From a virus (taxonomy: Duplodnaviria > Heunggongvirae > Uroviricota > Caudoviricetes): a stretch of 64,000 bases of DNA. Below the pieces are notes generated by a model. The model was not told the DNA's origin, ran no database searches, and saw nothing but the letters and a program-made list of their open reading frames with translations. Below are positions 12,685 through 58,037 of the stretch, in pieces. The number at the start of each line of letters is the position of its first letter. The first letter of the stretch is position 1. A program made the translations under genes and the position numbers. Location: the IMG/VR virus record IMGVR_UViG_3300045988_146577; one strand, given 5' to 3'.

Positions 12685-13866
12685 TTACGATAGCGCCTTA
12701 ATGCCCAAAACCTTGCTTTGCAACTCCAACTGTTTGGTATACGGTTTTGCCCGATAATAGGCTTTGATAATTTGTTCTGGCGTTGCATCGCCTGGGTCGA
12801 GTCCTTCCTCGCCCAAACATGCTACTTTGACATTAAGACCAATACTGGTCAGTCGCCTGGCTGCGGCCATAGTGTTGCGTATAGCTTGCTTTTCACTATC
12901 CCACATCATGATCACATTACGTAATCCACGCGCCTTGAGCGTCAGGAACGCGCCCAACTGATCTTCTGCATCCTGAGTGGTGTTACCAGATAGATGCATC
13001 CCGAACGTTCCTATCGGTTCCACGTAATCACGTAATGTTTCTTCATCAAAAATAGCTCGTTTAACTCCCATAACATCGAACGCCCCCTCACAGACAACTA
13101 CAGTCTGTTTGCCGACCGCATTATGGCCGTTGTAGAGAAACTTACCTGAAGCTGGAAGCTGCATAGGAAAGAGGTAGCGACGTTCAGCTGTACCGGTAAT
13201 GTCTCGTCCCTGAAATGTCTTCATTACCCCATCCAGATCGTAAACCGGTATCAGTATTCGCATATCGAATATCTGTCCTTTAACCTGATCTGTATACGGA
13301 TCTACATAGGCGTGCTTGCCTTCGACGCAGTATCGTAGGTCAAAATACTTTGCCATTTCAGGCGATATGTTTCGTTCAACCAGATAGTCTGGAAGACGGC
13401 CATCTATAGGAAGCTCGTAATGACGAGGGAGTGCAACTGGCCCCTCTAACTCGACTGTGCTTGCAAGCACTATCTCTTCTTTCTTTGGTGCCCACCCCTG
13501 GGAAAGAAGGGCGTTCTGCACATATTCCTCGAACTGTCGTCGTGATTTGCCGCTGTAGTGCTTGAGGAAGACCAGCTTATTGAACTGAATCTCTTCGGGA
13601 TGATCACCAGCGAAGCATTTACCGACGCCACTGGTCAGATTGAAATATACCTTCCAGTTGGAGCTGCCACATACCGGACACTCCTTGATATTCACTTCAC
13701 GACCGCGAGTACTCACGCCTCCACGTCGATAAACGATACCTTCAGTATCCAACCATTGTTCAAAATCTAATTCGGTAATTAGCTCTTTCAGCTCGCTCAC
13801 GATAATTCCACTTTTAACAGGCAATATTGTGACCAACCTAAATGTTGATATAACATAAAGGCTCAT
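12685..13866 (-). CDS. DNA primase (zinc-ribbon + TOPRIM); start uncertain (track start 13938, alternative GTG near 13800)
   Basis: CPVCGSSNWKVYFNLTSGVGKCFAGDH zinc motif; TOPRIM-like VVVCEGAFDVMGV; track ORF start overlaps a hairpin. Confidence 0.7.
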   Translation of the reverse strand: MSLYVISTFRLVTILPVKSGIIVSELKELITELDFEQWLDTEGIVYRRGGVSTRGREVNIKECPVCGSSNWKVYFNLTSGVGKCFAGDHPEEIQFNKLVFLKHYSGKSRRQFEEYVQNALLSQGWAPKKEEIVLASTVELEGPVALPRHYELPIDGRLPDYLVERNISPEMAKYFDLRYCVEGKHAYVDPYTDQVKGQIFDMRILIPVYDLDGVMKTFQGRDITGTAERRYLFPMQLPASGKFLYNGHNAVGKQTVVVCEGAFDVMGVKRAIFDEETLRDYVEPIGTFGMHLSGNTTQDAEDQLGAFLTLKARGLRNVIMMWDSEKQAIRNTMAAARRLTSIGLNVKVACLGEEGLDPGDATPEQIIKAYYRAKPYTKQLELQSKVLGIKALS

Positions 13867-21280: not shown

Positions 21281-24200
21281 TCAGTTACTTGTTGCCCCAA
21301 CAGTACCGGCAAATTTCAGCCATTGACCTGACGGACTTCTATTACTGCGGTAGTGATAAACGAGGATTGCGTTTGTCACTCCACCGTAATCAGCTTTATG
21401 TGACGTTGTTAAACGAATTGTATAATCACCGTTAGGTAGATTAAAAACTTCGATTATAGATTCTGCTAATTCTACAGCACCAAATCCCGTTATATTGTTG
21501 ATACTGCCAGCATTGAATCCCATAGCATCGCCAAAGCCAATCCAATATCTTTTGCTAAACGCCCCATTTGATTTAAGGTGGCTAATGAATGTGGACAAAC
21601 TCATGCCCATATCCCCACCTGAAATAGAGGAAGTTCGCACAGTCATGCTTGGAAGAGCACTGCTCTTCACATAGGAACTTAGAAGATTCGTTACCTCTGT
21701 TTTCGTATAAGCATTAAGGTTAGCCGCAGTCAAAGTAATATCGGCAGAGCCATCAAACGCCACACCAGCAATTTTCCTTGCTGTCTGCAATTTTGTGGCG
21801 GTTGCAGCATTACCAGTAGTGTTCTGGTTCCCATCTGCATTCACACCTGGGATGCTGTCTTTTTTAGTATATATCTGAGTCCAGTCCTCTTCGAACCCAT
21901 AGCCATCACGTGATGAACGGTAATACAATCCACCATTTTTATAATGCGCTCGGATTTGGAGAGTCCGACAACTACCTACGCCTATATAAAAATTTGCAAC
22001 GATATAAGAATCCCCGGAGCGTGTAACATTATACGCACCTGATTCGGCATTCCACGGGACCGCACCACTAGTATCGGCATAAGTTCCAGTAGCGCGTCGA
22101 GCAAAAGCAGATACATTTGCAGCTGTTAGTGTTATATCAGCAGAACCATCAAAAGACACGCCGCTTATTTTTCTAGCAGTTTGCAACTTCGTAGCTGTTG
22201 AAGCATTACCGTTCAAACTACCATTTACGCCACCAGTAACATTTAGTCCATTACCAATGGACACAGCACCGCTGGTATTATTAATTGTAATAGGTCGCAA
22301 ACCGTTCCATGAACCTAATGTGTTTCCTGATGCTGTTAGCATGAAATATGTGTTCGATCCATCATTACGGATAAAGAACCCAAAGCTACCGTAAGCAATG
22401 CGGAAACCATTTGCATATTTTGAAACGATCTCACCAGAAGACGTTAATCCGCCAGTTAACGCTCCTCCAGATAGTGGTAAAGCTCCGACATCAGCCGCAG
22501 TAGGCTTGTTTTTAGTGTTATACGCTCTGCGCCATCCTGGTGAATAGCTCGTCCCGTTAAATACATAGATAAACTCCGCATTAGTGAGAGCACCAGAGAC
22601 ACTCGTCGTTGTGGCCGTTGTTATACGGATCGTATAATTGTTTGAGCTACTACCGTTATTAAATACCTCAATAACTGCGCCAGCCAGTGGAATAATGCCG
22701 CATCCTGTTTCGCTGTCTGGTATGGATGCACTATTTGCATACGCCCAAGCACAACGCGCTATCCATGCCTTTGCATTAAAAGCACCATTATTTTGCAATA
22801 ACGTCACTAACTGTGCTGTTGTTATTGCTCCGCCATTACTTCCTGTAGTTAACCAACCAGTAGGAGATGCCGGGCAACCTATATTTGTTGGCGACAAGGA
22901 AATATTTGCCGAGCCGTCAAACGACACCCCATTGATAGTACGCGCAGTCTGCAACTTCGTAGCAGTAGCCGCGTTGCCCGTTGTATTCTGATTACCAGTC
23001 GTATTAACACCTGGCAAATTAATATTCGCAGTACCATCAAAGCTCACGCCGCCGATAGTTCTTGCCGTCTGAAGTTTTGTAGCAGTTGCAGCATTACCAG
23101 TGGTGTTCTGATTACCCGTAGTATTTACACCTGGAAGGTTGATATTTGCAGAACCGTCGAAACCAACTCCACCGATAGATCTTGCCGTCTGCAATTTCGT
23201 TGCTGTACTTGCATTACCATTTAATGTTCCGGTGATCCCACCAGTAACAGACAACGGACCTGAAACTGTTCCTCCGGTTGTTGGCAGTGCTCCAATATCT
23301 AACGGCGTCGGTTTCTGATGTGTGCTATACATCGTATAAACAACACCATCGGTAACGCTGGAAGGCTTACTAGCTGAATATGTTGGCGATGTATAAATAG
23401 AAACTGTCGCATTTGCAGTACAATCCCAATGGATATTTACACGAGTCGCATAATTGCCAATCTCAACGTAAATATCATATGTATCGCCGGATGTGTTGAT
23501 CCAGGCGAAATTCGTTAATCCGACAGCTGTACGCTTCCACAAAGCACCTGTAATCCCTTTGGGGTTTCCATTGCCTGCTCGTAGAACCAGTTCTGAAATG
23601 CCTGCCTGATGTGGGGAGCCGACGTTGTAACCAGCGCCACCAATCAATGCGATGTAAACGATGGAACTCGCTTGTGGCATTGTAACAGTAGCCAGTTTGA
23701 ACCACCCGGCCCCGCCAGAGAAAGACATCGTTATTGAATTTAAAGTACCAATATCTTTCGGCGTTAATGTGATATCCGCAGTCAGTGCTTTACCGTTAAC
23801 TTTTCGGTTAGATGGCACCCTGCTATTCGCATTGTCATTGGCTGCTTTAACTGCTTTTGGCGTTGCGGCCAGCGATTCACTGGTGCTATCAACAGCACTG
23901 CTAAGTTTCACAACACCTTTAGTTGTAAGGCTTGCGTCTTCCATCGCAACTGCACCGGCAATCTCTTCAGCACGATCAGCAGCAGCTTCCGCACGGGTCG
24001 CAGCGGATTCAGCAGCAGTTTTGCTCTGAGATGCTGCCGTCGCACTGCCTGCCGCCTCTGTCGCCTTCGTGGATGCTGTCGTGGCGCTGCCCTTCGCTGC
24101 GGACGCTTGTCTGGTCGCCTCATCTTTTGAAGCAGACGCCGATGATGCCGATGACGCCGCCGAACTGGCGGACGATGCGGCAGCCGTTTTTGAGGATTCT

Positions 24201-25306
24201 GCGCTGGTTTCCGACGCTTTCGCGTTCGTTTCGGATGTCTTCGCTGCGGAAGCTGACCTCGCTGCTGCGCTGGCCTGTTCAGTGGCTTCGCCAGCCTTCG
24301 TTGTGGCTGTTGAAGCGGATGATGCGGCGCTTTCTGCCGATTTTCCGGCGGCGGTGGCACTGGCTGAGGCCTGCCCGGCACTTGTTGACGCGGCACTGGC
24401 AGACGACGCAGCCGCTGTTTTTGAGCCTGCCGCAGCTGAGGCGCTCTGTCCCGCTGCCGTCTCAGAAGACCTGGCGTTCGCCTCGGACTTTTTTGCCGCC
24501 TTCGCGGAATTTCCTGCCGCCGTTGCCGAGGAAGCGGCACTACTGGCGCTCGAGGATGCGTTCGTTTCTGATGATTTCGCTGCCTCTTTTGAGGCCGCCG
24601 CATCCCGGGCTGAGGTGGCAGCTTCTGACGCCTTCGTGGTCGCGGTGGATGCAGAAGTGGCTGCAGATTTTTGTGACGCTGCAGCATTCGTTTCAGACGT
24701 TTTCGCGGCACCGGCACTGGTGGCCGCCGCGCTTTTTGAGGACTCTGCAGCGGATGCACTTTGAGACGCTTGAGAGGCTTTTTCTCCAGCGGTATTGGCG
24801 CTTTCTGCTGCTGCGGCAGCACTGGCCGCCGCCTCACGAGCTTTGTCGCCAGCAGCATCAATCGCGTCAGTGTTATTTTTATACCACTCAACGTTTTCGT
24901 TGTGCTCGTTGACGATCTGCATTAGCGGCTTAACGGTCACTTCTGTACCGTCTTCACGCTCGATTGTCACCTCATCCAGAGCAGTCAACCAACTGCGCAT
25001 GGACTTGGAATCAGCCGACATACGCGACATTAGTGCTGTAAAGCGCGCGCTAAACTGTGTTAAGTCGCCTTCATAGGTCGTAATGATTCGGCACGGAACT
25101 TCAGACTGAGTTTCGCCGGTATAAGGTTCTGAGAGAACAATGTTCGTATCGCTTATTACGCGCTTGATCTCATACAGCTTATTGTCGGGGCCAATGACGA
25201 TCATCCCCGGCAACACACCATTAGCTGTTACGTTCCAGGCTGTCCCTGCCCCAACCAGAGTATTGCTACCCTGTGTAAATGTGATAGTACCTTCCCTGTA
25301 CCACAT
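21281..25306 (-). CDS. stf: side tail fibre protein (lambda Stf-like) with Ala/Ser-rich repeat region and tail-fibre repeats
   Basis: 1341 aa; long ETNA...ASxSA low-complexity stretch; multiple GNAATATKLQTAR...GVxFDGSA repeats. Confidence 0.85.
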   Translation of the reverse strand: MWYREGTITFTQGSNTLVGAGTAWNVTANGVLPGMIVIGPDNKLYEIKRVISDTNIVLSEPYTGETQSEVPCRIITTYEGDLTQFSARFTALMSRMSADSKSMRSWLTALDEVTIEREDGTEVTVKPLMQIVNEHNENVEWYKNNTDAIDAAGDKAREAAASAAAAAESANTAGEKASQASQSASAAESSKSAAATSAGAAKTSETNAAASQKSAATSASTATTKASEAATSARDAAASKEAAKSSETNASSSASSAASSATAAGNSAKAAKKSEANARSSETAAGQSASAAAGSKTAAASSASAASTSAGQASASATAAGKSAESAASSASTATTKAGEATEQASAAARSASAAKTSETNAKASETSAESSKTAAASSASSAASSASSASASKDEATRQASAAKGSATTASTKATEAAGSATAASQSKTAAESAATRAEAAADRAEEIAGAVAMEDASLTTKGVVKLSSAVDSTSESLAATPKAVKAANDNANSRVPSNRKVNGKALTADITLTPKDIGTLNSITMSFSGGAGWFKLATVTMPQASSIVYIALIGGAGYNVGSPHQAGISELVLRAGNGNPKGITGALWKRTAVGLTNFAWINTSGDTYDIYVEIGNYATRVNIHWDCTANATVSIYTSPTYSASKPSSVTDGVVYTMYSTHQKPTPLDIGALPTTGGTVSGPLSVTGGITGTLNGNASTATKLQTARSIGGVGFDGSANINLPGVNTTGNQNTTGNAATATKLQTARTIGGVSFDGTANINLPGVNTTGNQNTTGNAATATKLQTARTINGVSFDGSANISLSPTNIGCPASPTGWLTTGSNGGAITTAQLVTLLQNNGAFNAKAWIARCAWAYANSASIPDSETGCGIIPLAGAVIEVFNNGSSSNNYTIRITTATTTSVSGALTNAEFIYVFNGTSYSPGWRRAYNTKNKPTAADVGALPLSGGALTGGLTSSGEIVSKYANGFRIAYGSFGFFIRNDGSNTYFMLTASGNTLGSWNGLRPITINNTSGAVSIGNGLNVTGGVNGSLNGNASTATKLQTARKISGVSFDGSADITLTAANVSAFARRATGTYADTSGAVPWNAESGAYNVTRSGDSYIVANFYIGVGSCRTLQIRAHYKNGGLYYRSSRDGYGFEEDWTQIYTKKDSIPGVNADGNQNTTGNAATATKLQTARKIAGVAFDGSADITLTAANLNAYTKTEVTNLLSSYVKSSALPSMTVRTSSISGGDMGMSLSTFISHLKSNGAFSKRYWIGFGDAMGFNAGSINNITGFGAVELAESIIEVFNLPNGDYTIRLTTSHKADYGGVTNAILVYHYRSNRSPSGQWLKFAGTVGATSN

Positions 25307-51135: not shown

Positions 51136-52695
51136 ATGACTGTTCGGATTGTATCTAACGCAGTTAATGCGCTTATTTCTGGCGCAGATGACAAGGTAAA
51201 GCAAATGGTGCAACAGATGTTGAGCTACGAAGTCGAGACTGGCGACTGGAAGGGCACAAGCACGATGTTCAACTGGAGTAAAAACTCGTTCCCTGCTGGC
51301 TTTGCCAAGCCTGTAGCGGCGAACTTGAACAAGGCGGGCATAAAATGTGTTCATATCCGCAAAGACAAAGCCCCGGCGCTTGGTAAACCAAATCCGGCGG
51401 TTAACCCATTCCCATGCAATCCTGATTATGCGTATCAGGATCAGACTGTGGAAACACTAGTTCGAGAGGGAATGATGATTGCGCAGATCGCTACTGGTGG
51501 CGGGAAATCTAATGTTGCCTGCAAAGCAGCTGCACGTATCGGTCGAATGACATTATTTTTAACAACCCGCTCTGTTCTGATGTTTCAGATGGCCGAAAAC
51601 TTCCAGAGATCCATCGACTACCGCGCCGAAAATGGCGAACCGTGGTTAAAAGACCAAAAGGTTGGAGTCATTGGCTCGGGTGAGTTCCAGGTATCACGAC
51701 ATATCAACGTCGCTACAGTTCAAACTCTTGCAAGTTTCCTCGAAGAACCACCACGCGATGCAACACCAGATAAGAAAAGCTTCCACCTCAAACGTCGGGA
51801 GTTGGTGAAACGCTTCCTTTCAAGTGTCTCTCTTCTTATTCTGGAAGAGGCGCATGAGTCTTCAGGCTCAAATTTCTATGACATTGCCAGATTATGTGTG
51901 AACGCAGACTATCGTCTGGCACTTACGGCCACGCCGTTCATGAAGGATTCTACAGAAGCCAACATGCGTCTGATGGCTGTGGCTGGGCGAATTGAAATCA
52001 AAGTCACAGAAAAGTACCTGATTGATCGAGGCATTCTGGCAAAACCGTACTTCCTTTATCATAAAGTTGCCTACAAGCCAGACGAGGTCAGAATAAAGGC
52101 GGAACTTGCCAACAAACACCTCAATTTTAGAGTTGGTATGAGCACCGCCTACCAAAAGGCTTATCAGTTGGGGATCGTGTATAATTTGGGACGTAACGAG
52201 GCCATTGTGCGCGAAGCATTGCTCTATAAGCAACATTCTCTCAATTGTATGACTCTGGTTCGTCTTAAACGCCACGGGCAAATCCTGATGGAAATGATGA
52301 AAGAGTCCGGCCTTAGAGTTGACTTCATTTATGGGGAATCGAACCAGTCGACAAGGCAAGCAAAGCTGAACAGTTTAGCGTCTGGTGAAATAGATGTTTT
52401 AATAGGCTCGACTATTCTGGATGTTGGTGTTGATGTGCCAAGCGTTGGTGCGGTCATTCTTGCTGGTGGTGGGAAAGCAGAAGTTGAAATGAGACAGCGT
52501 GTCGGTCGTGGCTTACGAGCCAAGAAGAATCAGGCAAACGTGTGTTTTATCACTGATTTCATTGACATTAGCAACAAATACCTGTTGTCTCACTCTTATG
52601 AGCGAAAACACATCATCGACACCACACCTGGCTTTGCAGAAGGTGTATTGCCTATTGATGGCGCATTCGATTTTGGAGTTCTGAAACGAGATTAG
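51136..52695 (+). CDS. superfamily-2 helicase (DEAH-like)
   Basis: 519 aa; motif I ATGGGKS, motif II LEEAHE, motif III TATP, motif VI QRVGRGLR. Confidence 0.8.
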   Translation: MTVRIVSNAVNALISGADDKVKQMVQQMLSYEVETGDWKGTSTMFNWSKNSFPAGFAKPVAANLNKAGIKCVHIRKDKAPALGKPNPAVNPFPCNPDYAYQDQTVETLVREGMMIAQIATGGGKSNVACKAAARIGRMTLFLTTRSVLMFQMAENFQRSIDYRAENGEPWLKDQKVGVIGSGEFQVSRHINVATVQTLASFLEEPPRDATPDKKSFHLKRRELVKRFLSSVSLLILEEAHESSGSNFYDIARLCVNADYRLALTATPFMKDSTEANMRLMAVAGRIEIKVTEKYLIDRGILAKPYFLYHKVAYKPDEVRIKAELANKHLNFRVGMSTAYQKAYQLGIVYNLGRNEAIVREALLYKQHSLNCMTLVRLKRHGQILMEMMKESGLRVDFIYGESNQSTRQAKLNSLASGEIDVLIGSTILDVGVDVPSVGAVILAGGGKAEVEMRQRVGRGLRAKKNQANVCFITDFIDISNKYLLSHSYERKHIIDTTPGFAEGVLPIDGAFDFGVLKRD

Positions 52696-52697
52696 TT

Positions 52698-52976
52698 ATG
52701 AGCGAAAAGAAAACAACTTATTGCCAAGTGGCATTGTCTGATAAGGCCAATGAAAAACTTGGAAAATTCCAAATAAAACTCAAAGAGAAAAAAATCAAGA
52801 TGTCTAAGGCTGAAGTTATCAATGCCATTCTGGAGACGATGACTATGGCTGAATTTGACAAAGTCACATCTGCCGTTGGGGTTTCCGCTAAGACGCGTGA
52901 GAAAATCATGCGCATCTATGAAAACTCCAATATGACAAAAAAAGATCTAGAGGAAATACTGAGCAGGTTGCCGTAA
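52698..52976 (+). CDS. hypothetical protein
   Basis: 92 aa Lys-rich ORF 3 nt after helicase stop. Confidence 0.45.
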   Translation: MSEKKTTYCQVALSDKANEKLGKFQIKLKEKKIKMSKAEVINAILETMTMAEFDKVTSAVGVSAKTREKIMRIYENSNMTKKDLEEILSRLP

Positions 52977-53008
52977 CATTTCATATTTACCCCCTATCTA
53001 CTAATTCT

Positions 53009-53608
53009 ATGATGTGCTCACTTGTTAGAAAGGAGCACATCATGAGTTGGTTAAAAGAATTATCATTTGTTGACACCACTGGCGCTAAGAAAAATCATTC
53101 TTTCTGGAAAGTCAGCGATCCTTCTGATTTTCTTGTTGGTGCTAATGCTGCTTTTGAATTGCTTAACTTTTATCAACGTTATCCAGAAATGAAACACAGT
53201 CCACTCCTGTACAGAATAACAAACGATATGAATAGGTCTGGTTTATTATCAAGTGAGTCAGCGAAAGGCTTTTTTAGCAAAATTACGCCACACATATCAT
53301 TCGATGCTGCAAACGAAATTGATTATCTATCCACGAAACCTCAAGAACAATTATCTGTACCACCTGAGAAAAAAGAAAGACGAATTGCCAGCATTGAAAA
53401 TATATCGAAAGAGCTTCGCACAACAACGTTGAGGCTGCTGAACTTTCTTACGCTGCTTAATTGGATAGATGATCAAACATTGATTCCATCAACAGATGCG
53501 TTGGATAACAGAGTCCTTAGGCTGAACAAAAAATCGCAATTTGGTTTTGTGTTCACCAAAAAAGGTGAAGATTTAATCAAAAGAAAATATAGATTATTGA
53601 ATGATTAA
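53009..53608 (+). CDS. hypothetical protein
   Basis: 199 aa ORF (start possibly MSWLK at 53042); AT-rich. Confidence 0.45.
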   Translation: MMCSLVRKEHIMSWLKELSFVDTTGAKKNHSFWKVSDPSDFLVGANAAFELLNFYQRYPEMKHSPLLYRITNDMNRSGLLSSESAKGFFSKITPHISFDAANEIDYLSTKPQEQLSVPPEKKERRIASIENISKELRTTTLRLLNFLTLLNWIDDQTLIPSTDALDNRVLRLNKKSQFGFVFTKKGEDLIKRKYRLLND

Positions 53609-53992
53609 TAGTCTACATGCAGGTGTATGAGAGCACCTGCATGTGACATTCATCACATTTTTGAATGTATATACCTTCGGCTGAAAAAGATCTTGATAGG
53701 CTGAATGATATTTGTAGGCTTCGCCTCCGAAGAAATTCGGAGGATATATGCGACAATTTATAAAAACGTGTGACCTAAGAAATATAGTAGATGATATTGC
53801 ATGTGATGAAATTAGCAAAAAAGAGAAGAACAAAAACGCCAATTAACGCTATCTACCTATAAATCTGAAGAGTTCAATAGGATGCATATCTGAAACACGC
53901 CCTCGACAATACCAAAAAGATTTGTCGAGGGCGTCGGGCTTTCCCTATGTCTGAACGATTAAATTTTACAGCAATTAAATATTTTGTATATG

Positions 53993-54793
53993 TTATTCTT
54001 CTGGTGGCACGACAAAATCATCGAGCTTATTCTTTTCGTCTCGAAGCAACTTGATTTCTTCTTCTGTTATACATTTGTCATAATCTGTTTGTTCAGAATG
54101 GCACAGTGTAACCGCGAATGGATAGCCGGTATAAGACAGTCCCCTAACAGGTTCTAGTTCACCGTTGTCTTTTTTCCTAAATTTGTAAAAGTCAGGAGTG
54201 TCATAATTGGTGACGCTAACAAGAGCATATTTATCATTTTCTCTTGCATACACTTCACTAACACCTCTCGATTCGCCCAACTCTCTACTCACATATGTCG
54301 AATCACTTGCAGCATCAAACACAGCCTGACCTAATGGAGTTTTTTTTAAATCATCTATTTTCTCTTTTTCCTTCCTGATTTTAGATTCGTTTTCCAGATA
54401 AAGTTTCACACCGTTTTCTTTGCATGCTAGATTTTGGCGTTCAAAACGTAATCGTTCTCTTGCCGAGTTGGTACTTTTATCCATTGTAACGAATACAATC
54501 GGGTTACGTTCACGAACATCAAAGATGTGCGCATTGAATGCGGTCGCACCTGTATAGGCATTCAAGACGTTTTTGCCATTCACTTCTCCACATACCATAT
54601 ATGAATAGCTATTTTCACCTAACTGAATAGCTCGCATATTCGTGAACCGACCAGCATCAGGATCTAGCAGTGTAGAGCGAATATCCTTTTCAACTAGATC
54701 TATGGCTCGCTCTTCATCAGAATCACAACCTGTTAATAGTAAAGCCGCTATTAACAATGCTAATGAGTATTTTTTATTCACCCCATTCTTCAT
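53993..54793 (-). CDS. putative lipoprotein
   Basis: 266 aa; signal peptide with lipobox LLLTGC. Confidence 0.6.
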   Translation of the reverse strand: MKNGVNKKYSLALLIAALLLTGCDSDEERAIDLVEKDIRSTLLDPDAGRFTNMRAIQLGENSYSYMVCGEVNGKNVLNAYTGATAFNAHIFDVRERNPIVFVTMDKSTNSARERLRFERQNLACKENGVKLYLENESKIRKEKEKIDDLKKTPLGQAVFDAASDSTYVSRELGESRGVSEVYARENDKYALVSVTNYDTPDFYKFRKKDNGELEPVRGLSYTGYPFAVTLCHSEQTDYDKCITEEEIKLLRDEKNKLDDFVVPPEE

Positions 54794-54895
54794 GAAACTT
54801 ATTCCATAATCAATTTTTGGTGGAATGTACGGTTAGTCTGTCTACGCATCATAGAGATGTATATAATGACCAAAAAAGACTTAAAAAGGTAGACT

Positions 54896-55417
54896 ATGGT
54901 TAAAGACATCACCTACGGCATACCGGCTGAAGTATGGCCGCGAGACTACGAACATGCTGAACGCACCTTGCTCTTCTGGCGGAGAGCTAAATTTCCTGTA
55001 AGAGTCACTCTCGAAGACGGCCAAGTGTTTTGCATGTACGTTTATGGTCTCATGTCATCTCGTAACAAAGTTGACCTTTGTCCAACTCCATTTGACAAAG
55101 AAAATCGTATAAGGCTCCCACTTGAGCGCATTAGCACAATTGAATCAGGCGTAATTGATGGCATTGATTACGATTTCAAAGGGAGACTAACAATACACCC
55201 TGACTATGTAGACAACCAGCCATCACGTCGTGACTTTTTTAAGATATGTCGTCAGGCTTACCAAAACGGCAAATCTATAAGGGTCTACATGGCAGACGGT
55301 CGCGAAATTGAGGGAACGTCAGATGGCGTTGACGCCTGTCTAGTCACACTTAAGTTGGAAGACGGTAGAAAAATACTTATTTTCTTCGATTGGGTTGAAC
55401 GAATCCTTCCGTTTTAG
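54896..55417 (+). CDS. hypothetical protein
   Basis: 173 aa ORF. Confidence 0.45.
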   Translation: MVKDITYGIPAEVWPRDYEHAERTLLFWRRAKFPVRVTLEDGQVFCMYVYGLMSSRNKVDLCPTPFDKENRIRLPLERISTIESGVIDGIDYDFKGRLTIHPDYVDNQPSRRDFFKICRQAYQNGKSIRVYMADGREIEGTSDGVDACLVTLKLEDGRKILIFFDWVERILPF

Positions 55418-55426
55418 GATATTGAT

Positions 55427-55726
55427 ATGAAAACTGTAGCAGCATTCACATTCTTAACTTTCATTTTTAGCTCTTCCGCATTTCCTCAAGAAAATAGCAT
55501 TGAACGAGTGCAACGTGTCTCTACAGAGTTGTGTTCAAAGGCGGAAGACTACGATTTGTGCATGTTAGACCTAAGCATGGCTTTAGGCGCTGCATATCAA
55601 GATGGACTGATCGTTGCGGGATGCAAGTTGGGACTTGATGAGCCTTCGAAAGACAAATGCGAAAACTCGGAGCGTTTTCAGGAATATATAATAAAAGAAA
55701 TCAGGAACTATGCAAAAAAGATGTAA
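55427..55726 (+). CDS. small secreted Cys-containing protein
   Basis: 99 aa; N-terminal signal-peptide-like MKTVAAFTFLTFIFSSSAF; four Cys. Confidence 0.5.
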   Translation: MKTVAAFTFLTFIFSSSAFPQENSIERVQRVSTELCSKAEDYDLCMLDLSMALGAAYQDGLIVAGCKLGLDEPSKDKCENSERFQEYIIKEIRNYAKKM

Positions 55727-56009
55727 ATTCCTATAAGGGTAATAACCGGCTAAGTCCGGTTATTATTTTACATGCCATTCGTTTAACACTCATTCAATTC
55801 TCCCCCGTATAAATATATATAAGGTCAAAAGCCGGAATTTATTATTTATTTAGGGAACACCTTCGACGATCTCGCTTTTATTTCTAGGGCTTTCATCCCT
55901 GCAAAAAACTTAAAAAAATACTTGCAATCTTTTTTCGCGTGTCGATAATTGGACTCATCGAAAGCGAAATTGCTAACGATAATTAAATTTTATACTAAGG
56001 ATTGAAATC

Positions 56010-56660
56010 ATGACTAACATTATCATTTCTAAAAAATCCATCATTGAAGCTGCTGCCATTGTATCCGACGAGCTGCGCGAAAAAGCAGATCTGGCAACTC
56101 AAACATATAACGAACATTATAAAAATGGTACGCACACAAAAGCAGACAAAGCAAATATGCAAGCTGCGACCACCAAACTTGCTTACTTCATCAACAACGT
56201 CGTAAACGCAGTAGAAGACGAAAAATTGTGCTCTGTTTTCTACTATGCGATCAAAGCAAGCAAACAAGCGCCAGAAGTATTTTTCCGTGATGCAATGACT
56301 AATAGTTATTCTCTGGAAAAACTGGTTTATCTGGTTAAATCCATTAAAGCTGGAAAGTGTGTTTATTCCGTCGCTGATATGTCCGGATCTCGTGTATTCG
56401 CATTAATCGATATGATTAACGACGAGATCGAGACGTTCACAAATGGCGCTGTTTTCGATTTAATGAATGAAGCGAAAAAAGCCAACGAAATAAAATTAGA
56501 CGCAGGATACACTCAAGCCAACCAGCTTATCAATCTTTGCGAACGTCTTGGACTTGTTGAGAAAGTCAAAGGAATGGGAAGCGCAAAAGCTGGTACGCAG
56601 CAATATCGCTTTATTAAAAATGATTTCTATAACTATCTGGCTGATGCTTTCAAAGCGTAA
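56010..56660 (+). CDS. hypothetical protein
   Basis: 216 aa ORF followed by terminator at 56674. Confidence 0.5.
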   Translation: MTNIIISKKSIIEAAAIVSDELREKADLATQTYNEHYKNGTHTKADKANMQAATTKLAYFINNVVNAVEDEKLCSVFYYAIKASKQAPEVFFRDAMTNSYSLEKLVYLVKSIKAGKCVYSVADMSGSRVFALIDMINDEIETFTNGAVFDLMNEAKKANEIKLDAGYTQANQLINLCERLGLVEKVKGMGSAKAGTQQYRFIKNDFYNYLADAFKA

Positions 56661-56673
56661 TTAATGGAATCTG

Positions 56674-56694
56674 GCGCCCACTATGGGCGCTTTT
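56674..56694 (+). terminator. rho-independent terminator
   Basis: GCGCCCACTATGGGCGC + TTTT. Confidence 0.7.
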
Positions 56695-56707
56695 AAGGAG
56701 CTTAATC

Positions 56708-56938
56708 ATGTTTATTCTTATCGCTGGCGTTAACGTGCGCAATGAATATTTTGTTAATCGCATCGCTGGGATCGCTGGTTACGCTGGGCGCGCAGTCGAG
56801 CTTATAGATGAAACGACGCGCAAAATTGACTTATTGAGCGACCAGGAGCGAAAAAAAGCAGACGTGAATGACGCTGATATATTTTTAATGTTAAAAGCGT
56901 TTGTAGAAATGGGATTTGAAATCAGTTTACATAAATAA
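56708..56938 (+). CDS. hypothetical small protein
   Basis: 76 aa ORF followed by identical terminator hairpin. Confidence 0.45.
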   Translation: MFILIAGVNVRNEYFVNRIAGIAGYAGRAVELIDETTRKIDLLSDQERKKADVNDADIFLMLKAFVEMGFEISLHK

Positions 56939-56944
56939 AATCGA

Positions 56945-56967
56945 GCGCCCACTATGGGCGCTTTTTT
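56945..56967 (+). terminator. rho-independent terminator (identical hairpin to 56674)
   Basis: GCGCCCACTATGGGCGC + TTTTTT. Confidence 0.7.
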
Positions 56968-56991
56968 CGTTTCCAATACTTCCACCATAAC

Positions 56992-57017
56992 GCGCCAATG
57001 ATGGCGCTTTTTTTATT
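56992..57017 (+). terminator. rho-independent terminator
   Basis: GCGCCAATGATGGCGC + TTTTTTT. Confidence 0.6.
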
Positions 57018-57424
57018 GTCTTTGACTCAAGCCAACAACATAAAAATAAGCGCCAAAATAACGCCATAGACGCGCTTTTATATCCTTACCAGTACATACC
57101 CATTACTTAGCGCATTAACGCGCTTAAATCGCGTTATATTGCGTTATGGTGTATGGTTAATCATTGGCTTTTATTCTTGCTATGTGATCCGCGTTTAATT
57201 GTCGGCGCGGATCGGCATTTTGTTTTGTTCCGTATCCGCTCGCGTATTATGTGCGCGTGATTTTTCACATAATCACACCACTTAATCACATATGTGATTA
57301 CGCTACGAAAGAAATCTGGATGTCTCAGGCGACGAAAGTCATCATAATTTTCCCCGCTCACCTGTCCGACAACCGCTGGTTGGATTCCACCAGCTTCCCG
57401 ATGTTTTTTCTATATAAAGGCGAA

Positions 57425-57545
57425 TGCAGCCGTTTCCCGAAAAAATCCTGGCCGTTTCCCGTCGGCTCATGAATACGTTCCTCGCCGTTTCTGAAAATTT
57501 CCCTGCGGCAGCTGGTGGCTATATAGAAAGGGCCGTTTCTGGCCC
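57425..57545. repeat. iteron cluster 1 (4 copies of GCCGTTTCC/TG-like motif)
   Basis: AGCCGTTTCCCG, GGCCGTTTCCCG, CGCCGTTTCTG, GGCCGTTTCTGG spaced 20-50 nt. Confidence 0.6.
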
Positions 57546-57554
57546 TCTTCTCAG

Positions 57555-58037
57555 TTACACGCCATCAAGGATGTGGATGCGGTTGCTTGCGTATACATTC
57601 AGCATAAAGTTAGCGCAAAACAGTTTCCATGTATCAACGCCAGCGGTATACGTAATGTTTTTGCATTTAATCGCATTGTTGGCGATCCGCATCCCCTGCG
57701 ATACTGCTTCATCGTCGGAAAATTTGAACGACGATTGAGTTTTAATCCAGACAGAAATCTGCGTAGCGAACTCAATCAGCTTGGACTGGCAGAATCGCCC
57801 GGAGCGCACCGGAAAGACGAACGTTCCGAATCCAGAATTTACCACATACGCTTTCTCAAATACCCGCGAGTAACGACGATTGCCAATGATGTCGCGTGCA
57901 ATAATGCATTTTTCTTGTGCTGACAGTTCTACCGTCTCATTGTCGCGCCATGCACCAAGTACTCGTTTTTCAATGTCAGAGAACGTTACAGCGATATTGC
58001 CATGTGCGGGTGCGTTTACAGTAGCGATAAAATTCAT
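57555..58037 (-). CDS. hypothetical protein
   Basis: 160 aa ORF; motif-A promoter-operator immediately upstream. Confidence 0.5.
   Translation of the reverse strand: MNFIATVNAPAHGNIAVTFSDIEKRVLGAWRDNETVELSAQEKCIIARDIIGNRRYSRVFEKAYVVNSGFGTFVFPVRSGRFCQSKLIEFATQISVWIKTQSSFKFSDDEAVSQGMRIANNAIKCKNITYTAGVDTWKLFCANFMLNVYASNRIHILDGV

Follow-up and report, generated by a model that had tools for sequence, protein, structure and literature searches.

IMG/VR record IMGVR_UViG_3300045988_146577 (Caudoviricetes) is a 64,000-nt stretch of DNA, referred to below as the window, in which a group of seven small genes, all but one on the plus strand, lies between 52698 and 57020 and ends in a set of hairpins. 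The best match for this 4.3-kb region is E. coli plasmid pEco_M21170_105 (99.6% identity, full length); Escherichia phage Cyrano (= pLF82) is 96% identical across 93% of it, and there are weaker matches to Salmonella phage SSU5, Klebsiella phage-plasmids, and Yersinia pestis plasmids. Together, these matches identify the window, at the sequence level, as an SSU5-like phage-plasmid, more exactly an SSU5/Cyrano-type E. coli phage-plasmid with an IncFIB replicon. The region had been sequenced before and belongs to a well-known phage-plasmid family, and every open reading frame (ORF) of the block already has a PHROG family; no paper testing any of its genes was found in the literature.

The minus-strand genes upstream encode a terminase, a portal protein, an ABC-type ATPase, and two ParB-like proteins. 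Divergent from the ParB-like genes, a DEAD/DEAH-box (UvsW-like) helicase gene (51136–52695, plus strand) opens the rightward, plus-strand arm that holds the genes of interest. The first of these, A92 (52698–52976, plus; 92 amino acids (aa); phrog_1466), starts 2 nt past the helicase stop codon. It is followed by B188 (53042–53608, plus; 188 aa), C266 (53993–54793, minus; 266 aa), D173 (54896–55417, plus; 173 aa), E99 (55427–55726, plus; 99 aa), which starts 10 nt past D173, F216 (56010–56660, plus; 216 aa; phrog_1513), and G76 (56708–56938, plus; 76 aa; phrog_1585). An earlier note on this DNA, made from the letters alone, had placed its ORFs correctly and taken the block to be acquired cargo for lysogenic conversion, superinfection exclusion, or defense. 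Four of the seven genes, and the slots in which they lie, bear out the cargo idea; the block as a whole does not.

Conserved backbone and variable slots

Eighty-six loci were fetched around homologues of the helicase and searched with all window proteins; 72 of them span the whole arm, and the counts given here refer to these. Their gene order is invariant: helicase, A92, slot 1, D173, slot 2, F216, slot 3, and a minus-strand gene for a 160-aa protein (H160). D173 and F216 are present in all 72 (38–98% and 49–98% identical to the window proteins, respectively), and A92 is found by tblastn in 68 (36–100%); the four loci without a match belong to the most divergent lineage, and L085, which was read by eye, has a related small ORF at the same place. 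The other genes come and go: G76 is in 36 loci, B188 in 20, E99 in 7, and C266 in 6. Conserved synteny reaches relatives with helicase identity down to 70%, and the same architecture is annotated in Klebsiella plasmids. As read from this gene order, the region is a rightward arm carried by every SSU5-like phage-plasmid (Cyrano/pLF82, pHCM2, pMT1, and the Klebsiella relatives), and the arm is a mosaic of conserved backbone genes and three variable slots, not an acquired island. The earlier note had set its cargo idea against genes kept as core genes by all relatives with a defined virion or replication role; conservation in all relatives is what is found, with no virion or replication role defined.

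The slots vary in both size and content. Slot 1 is 107–2935 bp long, slot 2 ~300 or ~600 bp and up to 4 kb, and slot 3 660–1170 bp. In the window, slot 1 holds B188 and C266, slot 2 E99, and slot 3 G76. The commonest slot-1 content among the relatives is a lipoprotein or secreted protein: a 140–154-aa lipoprotein in 41 loci, with three other types that include C266. Slot 2 either is empty or carries a secreted Cys protein of ~100 aa, of which there are three unrelated-looking types (29 loci in total, proteins other than E99 filling its place in 22 of them), and slot 3 is filled in some relatives by another ORF, of 67 aa. Judged by these distributions, B188, C266, E99, and G76 behave as variable cargo, as the earlier note had expected on comparing relatives at this position, whereas A92, D173, and F216 are fixed in the family. 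The ratio of nonsynonymous to synonymous substitution rates (dN/dS) is ~0.10 for D173, with synonymous sites saturated in many of the pairs, ~0.08 for F216, 0.26 for G76, and ~0.56 for E99; by this measure D173 and F216 are under purifying selection.

The low G+C content that had first set the block apart is real, at 0.36–0.40 in 1-kb windows from 53 to 57 kb vs. 0.462 for the whole window. However, A92 and F216, which are conserved, have a G+C of 0.39 and are as AT-rich as the cargo genes, so low G+C is no sign of recent acquisition. As to defense cargo, PADLOC-DB 2.0 profiles run against all eight proteins gave no match except a 12-bit chance match of B188 to SspC, but some relatives do have such genes in their slots: a 607-aa HEPN_LA2681 protein between the D173 and F216 homologues, in slot 2 of L078 (Pfam, E 7e-37); a 337-aa SMEK_N protein in slot 2 of L079 (PADLOC Aga_REase match, 6e-29); and a 377-aa HNH nuclease in slot 1 of L028 (PADLOC HNH match, 2e-5). 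The slots therefore act as occasional defense-gene hot spots.

Two of the cargo genes encode products directed to the envelope, both as the earlier note had described them. The C266 signal peptide ends MKNGVNKKYSLALLIAALLLTG/C, in agreement with the lipobox pattern [LVI][ASTVI][GAS]C (lipobox LLTG/C, with Asp at +2), and the lipobox Cys is invariant in eight homologues; a structural model and its fold matches predict two cystatin/NTF2-like domains linked by helices. E99 has a cleavable signal peptide and four Cys, and its gene is absent from Cyrano. C266, anchored in the membrane and periplasmic, and E99 would then be envelope morons that may block superinfection. T5 Llp and phi80/N15 Cor are lipoprotein-type superinfection-exclusion proteins, and C266 is like them in being a phage-encoded lipoprotein made in the lysogen; superinfection exclusion by C266 or E99 is plausible. 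Between B188 and C266, which converge, lies a strong GC-rich hairpin (53899–53934; −26 kcal/mol on one strand and −24 on the other) that is likely a bidirectional terminator, and the D173–E99 unit has its own terminator (55736–55769, plus; −15.3 kcal/mol, then a T tract), different from the duplicated hairpin described below.

The two genes nearest the helicase gave fewer clues. For A92, whose family is tiny (15 representatives among 1.84 billion proteins), there were no Pfam or PDB matches. Its beta-alpha-alpha pattern resembles that of ribbon-helix-helix proteins, and hhalign placed it against CopG in the expected register, at a probability of 2.5%; a ribbon-helix-helix fold is suspected. 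A92, D173, and F216 can be regarded as three putative conserved regulator genes. B188 is predicted to be cytoplasmic and has no known domain. It had been listed as a 199-aa ORF (53009–53608, plus), which is present, but the RefSeq start and a Shine-Dalgarno sequence favor 188 aa from 53042. An 11-bp inverted repeat, ATGATGTGCTC / GAGCACATCAT (53009–53019 / 53033–53043), covers this Shine-Dalgarno sequence and the ATG at 53042 and could occlude translation; in Cyrano, RNA falls ~12-fold from the A92 orthologue to the B188 orthologue. Profile searches (Pfam and PADLOC included) with B188, E99, and G76 gave no informative matches, and PDB sequence searches with A92, B188, C266, D173, and F216, as single proteins and as profiles, gave nothing significant.

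A probable terminator array

The sequence GCGCCCACTATGGGCGC occurs exactly twice in the window, at 56674 and 56945, where 0.02 matches would be expected by chance. The two 17-bp copies are indeed identical, as the earlier note had it, although the genes that they end are the 216-aa and 76-aa ORFs and not the 99-aa one. Copy 1 (56674–56690, plus; 8-bp stem, T4, −14.1 kcal/mol) begins 14 nt past the F216 stop codon; its U tract stops at four residues, where the G76 Shine-Dalgarno sequence takes over, and this copy is therefore probably leaky. Copy 2 (56945–56961, plus; 9-bp stem, T6, −15.5 kcal/mol) follows the G76 stop by 7 nt and, by its predicted structure, is a strong and potentially bidirectional terminator. 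G76 lies between the two. The third terminator that had been noted is also there, as a related hairpin, GCGCCAATGATGGCGC, with a T7 tract (56992–57007, plus; 6-bp stem, −10.7 kcal/mol), 47 nt after copy 2 and 54 nt past the G76 stop. The loops of all three are 3–4 nt.

In the relatives, the 19-mer AGCGCCCA-CTA-TGGGCGCT is almost exactly conserved in all lineages, including those in which F216 identity drops to 49%. Each locus has 1–4 copies of it; its loop varies (CTA, TAG, TAA, TGA, GCAA, GAAA) and is sometimes inverted, with the stem kept. At the position of the third hairpin, divergent relatives have additional exact repeats of the first one, in tandem units of 44 bp: L085, for example, has three such units (hairpin, T tract, and spacer) in tandem without an intervening gene, while other relatives have one or two small ORFs between copies. 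Among 2.9 million viral contigs in IMG/VR, the 19-mer was found in 94 stretches, and in 76 of the 77 that were newly fetched the hairpin is no more than 1.5 kb from homologues of F216, G76, or H160. Within the viral collection searched, then, the hairpin appears almost restricted to this locus of the SSU5-like family. The lone exception is an exact 19-mer at 12915–12933 of L101 (IMGVR_UViG_3300031925_000025, 32 kb), with no F216, G76, or H160 homologue nearby.

By their anatomy and position, the hairpins are best taken as intrinsic terminators, duplicated in tandem where the plus-strand arm runs up against genes of the minus strand. They would have arisen by tandem duplication of a ~45-bp unit. 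The leaky first hairpin would let some transcription reach G76, the later ones would insulate the arm from convergent transcription, and the repeated copies could provide homology for the swapping of small gene cassettes. A plasmid origin was also considered as a reason for the repeats and rejected: the plasmid repA gene is ~35 kb from the arm, measured around the circular plasmid.

Some 540 bp of non-coding sequence (57020–57555) separates the array from the 3′ end of the 160-aa gene on the minus strand and is moderately to well conserved, with column identities of 0.6–0.87 across divergent relatives, especially in 57380–57555. It includes four GCCGTTTC repeats within 110 bp (57429–57539), of six in the whole window where ~2 would be expected, as well as TTTCTATATA / TATATAGAAA, a perfect inverted pair separated by 103 nt; one of the GCCGTTTC repeats belongs to the likely terminator of the 160-aa gene. 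This stretch could be a protein-binding array. A structured RNA at 57.0–57.55 kb was not supported (folding z-score −1.2), and a search of 50–60 kb of the window against Rfam at permissive thresholds returned no known RNAs.

D173 and F216

D173, which the earlier note had called unknown, is a full-length member of the FljA family. It matches Pfam PF03614 (Flag1_repress) with an E value of 3.5e-80 (268.2 bits, against a cutoff of 24), residues 4–170 aligning to positions 1–170 of the 170 in the profile, and belongs to phrog_1444, "transcriptional repressor" (E 5.5e-98); existing database labels are "repressor of phase-1 flagellin" or "transcriptional regulator." Twenty-eight invariant columns are common to the phage-plasmid and chromosomal members, including an Atlantibacter protein encoded behind a flagellin gene, and contain the motifs TYG..AEVWPRDY, RDFF.IC, DGR..EG, and FDWV.RI. 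FljA-type proteins are reported to block translation of fliC mRNA, a post-transcriptional action (PMC2652032), and fljBA of Salmonella and flkAB of E. coli each place the repressor on one transcript with a replacement flagellin (PMC3378880). Neither the 64-kb window nor any of 89 related loci yielded a flagellin homologue, so D173 is an orphan FljA; none is annotated either in the inspected parts of the closest plasmid. In the literature, no link was found between SSU5, pHCM2, or pLF82 and FljA or flagella. A decoy or mimic of the E. coli K-12 fliC leader was looked for in the window and rejected, with chance 10–12-mers only.

The protein has an apparent internal duplication, each half with a helix followed by xVRVxLxDGxxxxG...ERI. 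The C-terminal half gives weak matches to Hfq/LSM/Sm proteins (Pfam E ~0.06–0.09; PDB Hfq-like E 1.1), and hhalign places the halves in register with a probability of only 6.5%. This is suggestive of a tandem Sm/Hfq-like duplication, a fold that would fit an RNA-binding role. Among close relatives (the window compared with L001, L097, and L098), it also diverges far more than its neighbors: D173 is 86% identical to the Cyrano copy, while the flanking proteins are 99–100% identical, and in two Klebsiella plasmids with 100% identical F216 the D173 alleles are only 74% identical. Overall, D173 alleles are 14–26% different between elements with 95–100% identical F216, a pattern of divergence like that of allelic immunity or specificity genes.

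One chromosomal member of the family may have a phage connection of its own. In the Atlantibacter hermannii chromosome (L093, 3239–5531), a canonical FljA gene comes immediately after a flagellin gene, and the pair sits just after tail-tip and tail-fiber (Peptidase_S74) genes, near a phage integrase. It looks like a prophage-borne module of flagellin plus repressor, whose outcome would be analogous to that of the TldR flagellin-remodeling prophages.

F216 is known only from SSU5-like elements and has no Pfam domains. Its AlphaFold (AF2) model (predicted local distance difference test score, pLDDT, 82.5) has a long N-terminal helical hairpin, in the manner of a coiled coil, and in residues 126–201 a C-terminal H-S-H-H-S-S winged-helix topology. 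The top Foldseek matches are to winged-helix proteins (Orc1/Cdc6, a MukBEF subunit, RTP, TubR, and MarR) with probabilities of 0.9–1.0, but with E values of at least 0.03 these are not significant; a coiled coil plus winged helix is the predicted structure. Upstream is a family-conserved sigma-70-like promoter (55922–55949, plus: A-tract, TTGCAA, 16 nt, GATAAT), and at the predicted transcript start is a conserved imperfect palindrome or hairpin (55957–55980, plus: ATCG-AA-AGCG-loop-TGCT-AA-CGAT). Over 18 distinct sequences, 93% of its cells are paired and three pairs have compensatory changes on both sides, and none of 500 shuffles reached its covariation score. The element may serve in the DNA, as an operator at +1, or in the RNA, as a 5′ stem-loop. 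F216 itself would be a DNA-binding gene of the lytic or early program, kept off in lysogeny.

Expression can be judged by proxy from the Cyrano lysogen LF82, for which Misson et al. (PMC9928086, Table 1 and S1 Table) re-analyzed RNA-seq data; the background median is 9.8 normalized counts in lysogeny broth (LB). In LB, the A92 orthologue CYRAN_117, which is listed there as a moron, is the highest of the block with 114 counts (~12 times background), compared with 46 for the helicase (CYRAN_118), 29 for C266 (CYRAN_115), 18 for D173 (CYRAN_114), 9 for B188 (CYRAN_116), 6 for F216 (CYRAN_113), and the floor value of 5 for G76 (CYRAN_112) (PMC9928086). The C266 and D173 orthologues rise in Dulbecco's modified Eagle's medium (DMEM) and in macrophages (C266 to log2 ~9.2–9.4 in both, D173 to log2 ~8.1 in macrophages), while for F216 the one change is a slight increase at 6 h in macrophages, shared with the ParB-like gene (PMC9928086). 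In this relative A92, C266, and D173 are on in lysogeny, and F216 and G76 behave like repressed phage genes. For the lysogenic-conversion idea this is a divided result, C266 and D173 being transcribed in lysogens and F216 and G76 silent; the FljA homologue could in principle be a lysogenic-conversion gene.

Alternative explanations and significance

The best explanation for these observations, and one considered reasonably probable, is an SSU5-like arm with a fixed backbone, three cargo slots, and a terminator array, in which D173, C266/E99, F216, and the hairpins have roles of the kinds suggested above. The anatomy (conserved backbone, slots, and array) is well supported. D173 would be an RNA-binding translational repressor like FljA, made in lysogeny. 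In a motile E. coli host its likeliest target would be the 5′ leader of fliC mRNA, although even this is put at somewhat less than even odds; with no flagellin supplied by the element, flagellin would then be lost from the lysogen. Several points weigh against this explanation. All gene functions in the block are inferred; D173 is 35–41% identical to the FljA homologues that adjoin flagellin genes; the expression values come from Cyrano, a relative without E99 and with a D173 allele of 86% identity; and the sequence of the hairpins is more nearly exactly conserved than structure alone would need. In addition, D173 homologues are found in 831 plasmid records and are intact in 341 from Klebsiella and 62 from Yersinia pestis. 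These hosts are non-flagellate, which makes fliC doubtful as the sole target and, with the divergence of D173 alleles, leaves room for an intrinsic target. The main alternative target, the leader of the element's own F216, seems rather less likely than fliC.

That alternative can be developed into a switch module, in which D173 is an intrinsic post-transcriptional regulator of the phage-plasmid that binds the 5′ hairpin of F216 mRNA and keeps F216 off in lysogeny. It would explain the intact D173 genes of non-flagellate hosts, and it fits the constant order of D173 and then F216 in all 72 loci, the expression of the one and silence of the other in Cyrano lysogens, the compensatory changes in the leader hairpin, and the immunity-type divergence of D173 where F216 hardly differs. 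Within the E. coli lineage, hairpin variants also go with particular D173 allele classes, but the two are only 300–600 bp apart, so this association is confounded by linkage and is not used as evidence, and several D173 classes have one common hairpin variant. The palindrome, moreover, is at the predicted +1, where the DNA operator of a transcriptional repressor would also lie, and the background level of F216 RNA suggests silencing of transcription rather than of translation; nor does the window have any sequence resembling the fliC leader. On balance the switch is doubtful. The wider proposition, that the orphan FljA homologue is an active RNA-binding regulator, either silencing host flagellin without replacing it or acting as an allele-specific switch on the F216 5′ hairpin, is regarded as possible but on the unlikely side.

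Two further readings concern the block as a whole and the hairpins. Horizontal acquisition of the entire AT-rich block into a phage backbone, for lysogenic conversion, superinfection exclusion, or defense, would account for its low G+C, for its strand, opposite to most of the element, for the lipoprotein and secreted products, for the variable presence of some genes (with HEPN, SMEK, and HNH at the same slots in some relatives), and for expression of C266 and D173 in Cyrano lysogens. It is hard to reconcile with the synteny of A92, D173, and F216 across the 72 relatives (A92 in the 68 with a tblastn match) and down to 70% helicase identity, with dN/dS values of ~0.1 and 0.08 for D173 and F216, or with an AT content that is equally high in conserved and variable genes; Cyrano lysogens show only background RNA for F216 and G76, and no window gene has a PADLOC match. 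This reading is largely refuted and has little probability left. The hairpins, for their part, might be primarily protein-binding or recombination sites (centromere-like elements, operators, or points of cassette exchange) rather than terminators. The near-exact conservation of the 19-mer even where F216 is 49% identical, the occurrence of up to four copies in a 44–47-bp register with no gene between, the near restriction to this locus in IMG/VR, and the putative DNA-binding proteins encoded nearby could all be so understood. However, the GCGCCCA-N3-TGGGCGC elements have a textbook terminator anatomy, with an 8-bp GC-rich stem, a 3–4-nt loop, and a T tract; they lie just past stop codons, where convergent genes meet; variation in loop sequence, length (3 or 4 nt), and orientation with the stem kept fits an RNA hairpin better than a dimeric site; and repA is far away on the circle. 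A primary role as binding or recombination sites is judged improbable.

In comparison with known systems, D173 resembles Salmonella FljA (fljBA, phase-1 flagellin repressor) and FljA(z66) of pBSSB1 in its full-length PF03614 profile, similar length, and invariant motifs. Salmonella FljA has a partner flagellin and an invertible promoter, and D173 has neither; unlike FljA next to flagellin, D173 is a universal gene of a phage-plasmid family, non-flagellate hosts included, and its action on fliC is putative. The E. coli flkAB (flk) islet carries a mobile FljA-type repressor, FlkB, that acts in E. coli as D173 would (PMC3378880), but there the repressor comes with a replacement flagellin and the result is an antigen switch, whereas D173, with none supplied, is predicted to cause flagellin loss. 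In Enterobacter, the temperate phage FR-phi silences host flagellin in lysogeny through TldR as a fitness trait (PMC13418256), the outcome also predicted for D173; TldR, however, is an RNA-guided transcriptional repressor with a phage flagellin, while D173 is an FljA-type protein without one, and its effect is putative. Like morons (lambda bor/lom; the LF82 prophage morons, PMC9928086), the cargo of the arm consists of small, variable genes between conserved ones, with their own terminators and, for C266 in Cyrano, expression from the prophage; A92, D173, and F216 differ from morons in being fixed in the family, and only B188, C266, E99, and G76 are variable.

Clinical Enterobacteriaceae commonly carry SSU5-like phage-plasmids (as in S. 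Typhi pHCM2, Y. pestis pMT1, E. coli LF82, and Klebsiella pneumoniae), which tend to be labeled cryptic, and a D173 homologue is present in more than 800 plasmid records from Escherichia, Salmonella, Klebsiella, Enterobacter, and Yersinia. If the FljA homologue does silence flagellin, carriage of these plasmids would alter motility, immune recognition, and phage susceptibility in many pathogens, and they would offer many hosts a plasmid-borne means of losing flagella, evading TLR5, and resisting flagellotropic phages. If instead D173 controls F216, a flagellar regulator family has been reused as a phage switch, adding a new RNA-level layer to lysis–lysogeny control. The orphan, universally conserved FljA homologue is the lead most worth experiment, and the three-slot map directs future surveys to new envelope and defense genes in the SSU5-like family.

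Two other parts of the window also drew attention. At ~63.4–64.0 kb (= NZ_CP133922.1 from 78175 onward; Cyrano CYRAN_98-100) are genes for a methionyl-tRNA synthetase (metG), an apbC/Mrp-like ATPase, and an S24 LexA-like peptidase; the ATPase gene is labeled "septum site-determining protein" in Cyrano and is expressed in lysogeny, and a type I restriction-modification system is found further downstream in the closest plasmid. At 24001–25000, within a 1341-aa minus-strand ORF (21281–25306), G+C spikes to 0.599 vs. ~0.46 with an AT skew of −0.35, and both strands carry long overlapping ORFs; this may be a repetitive or collagen-like tail-fiber segment.

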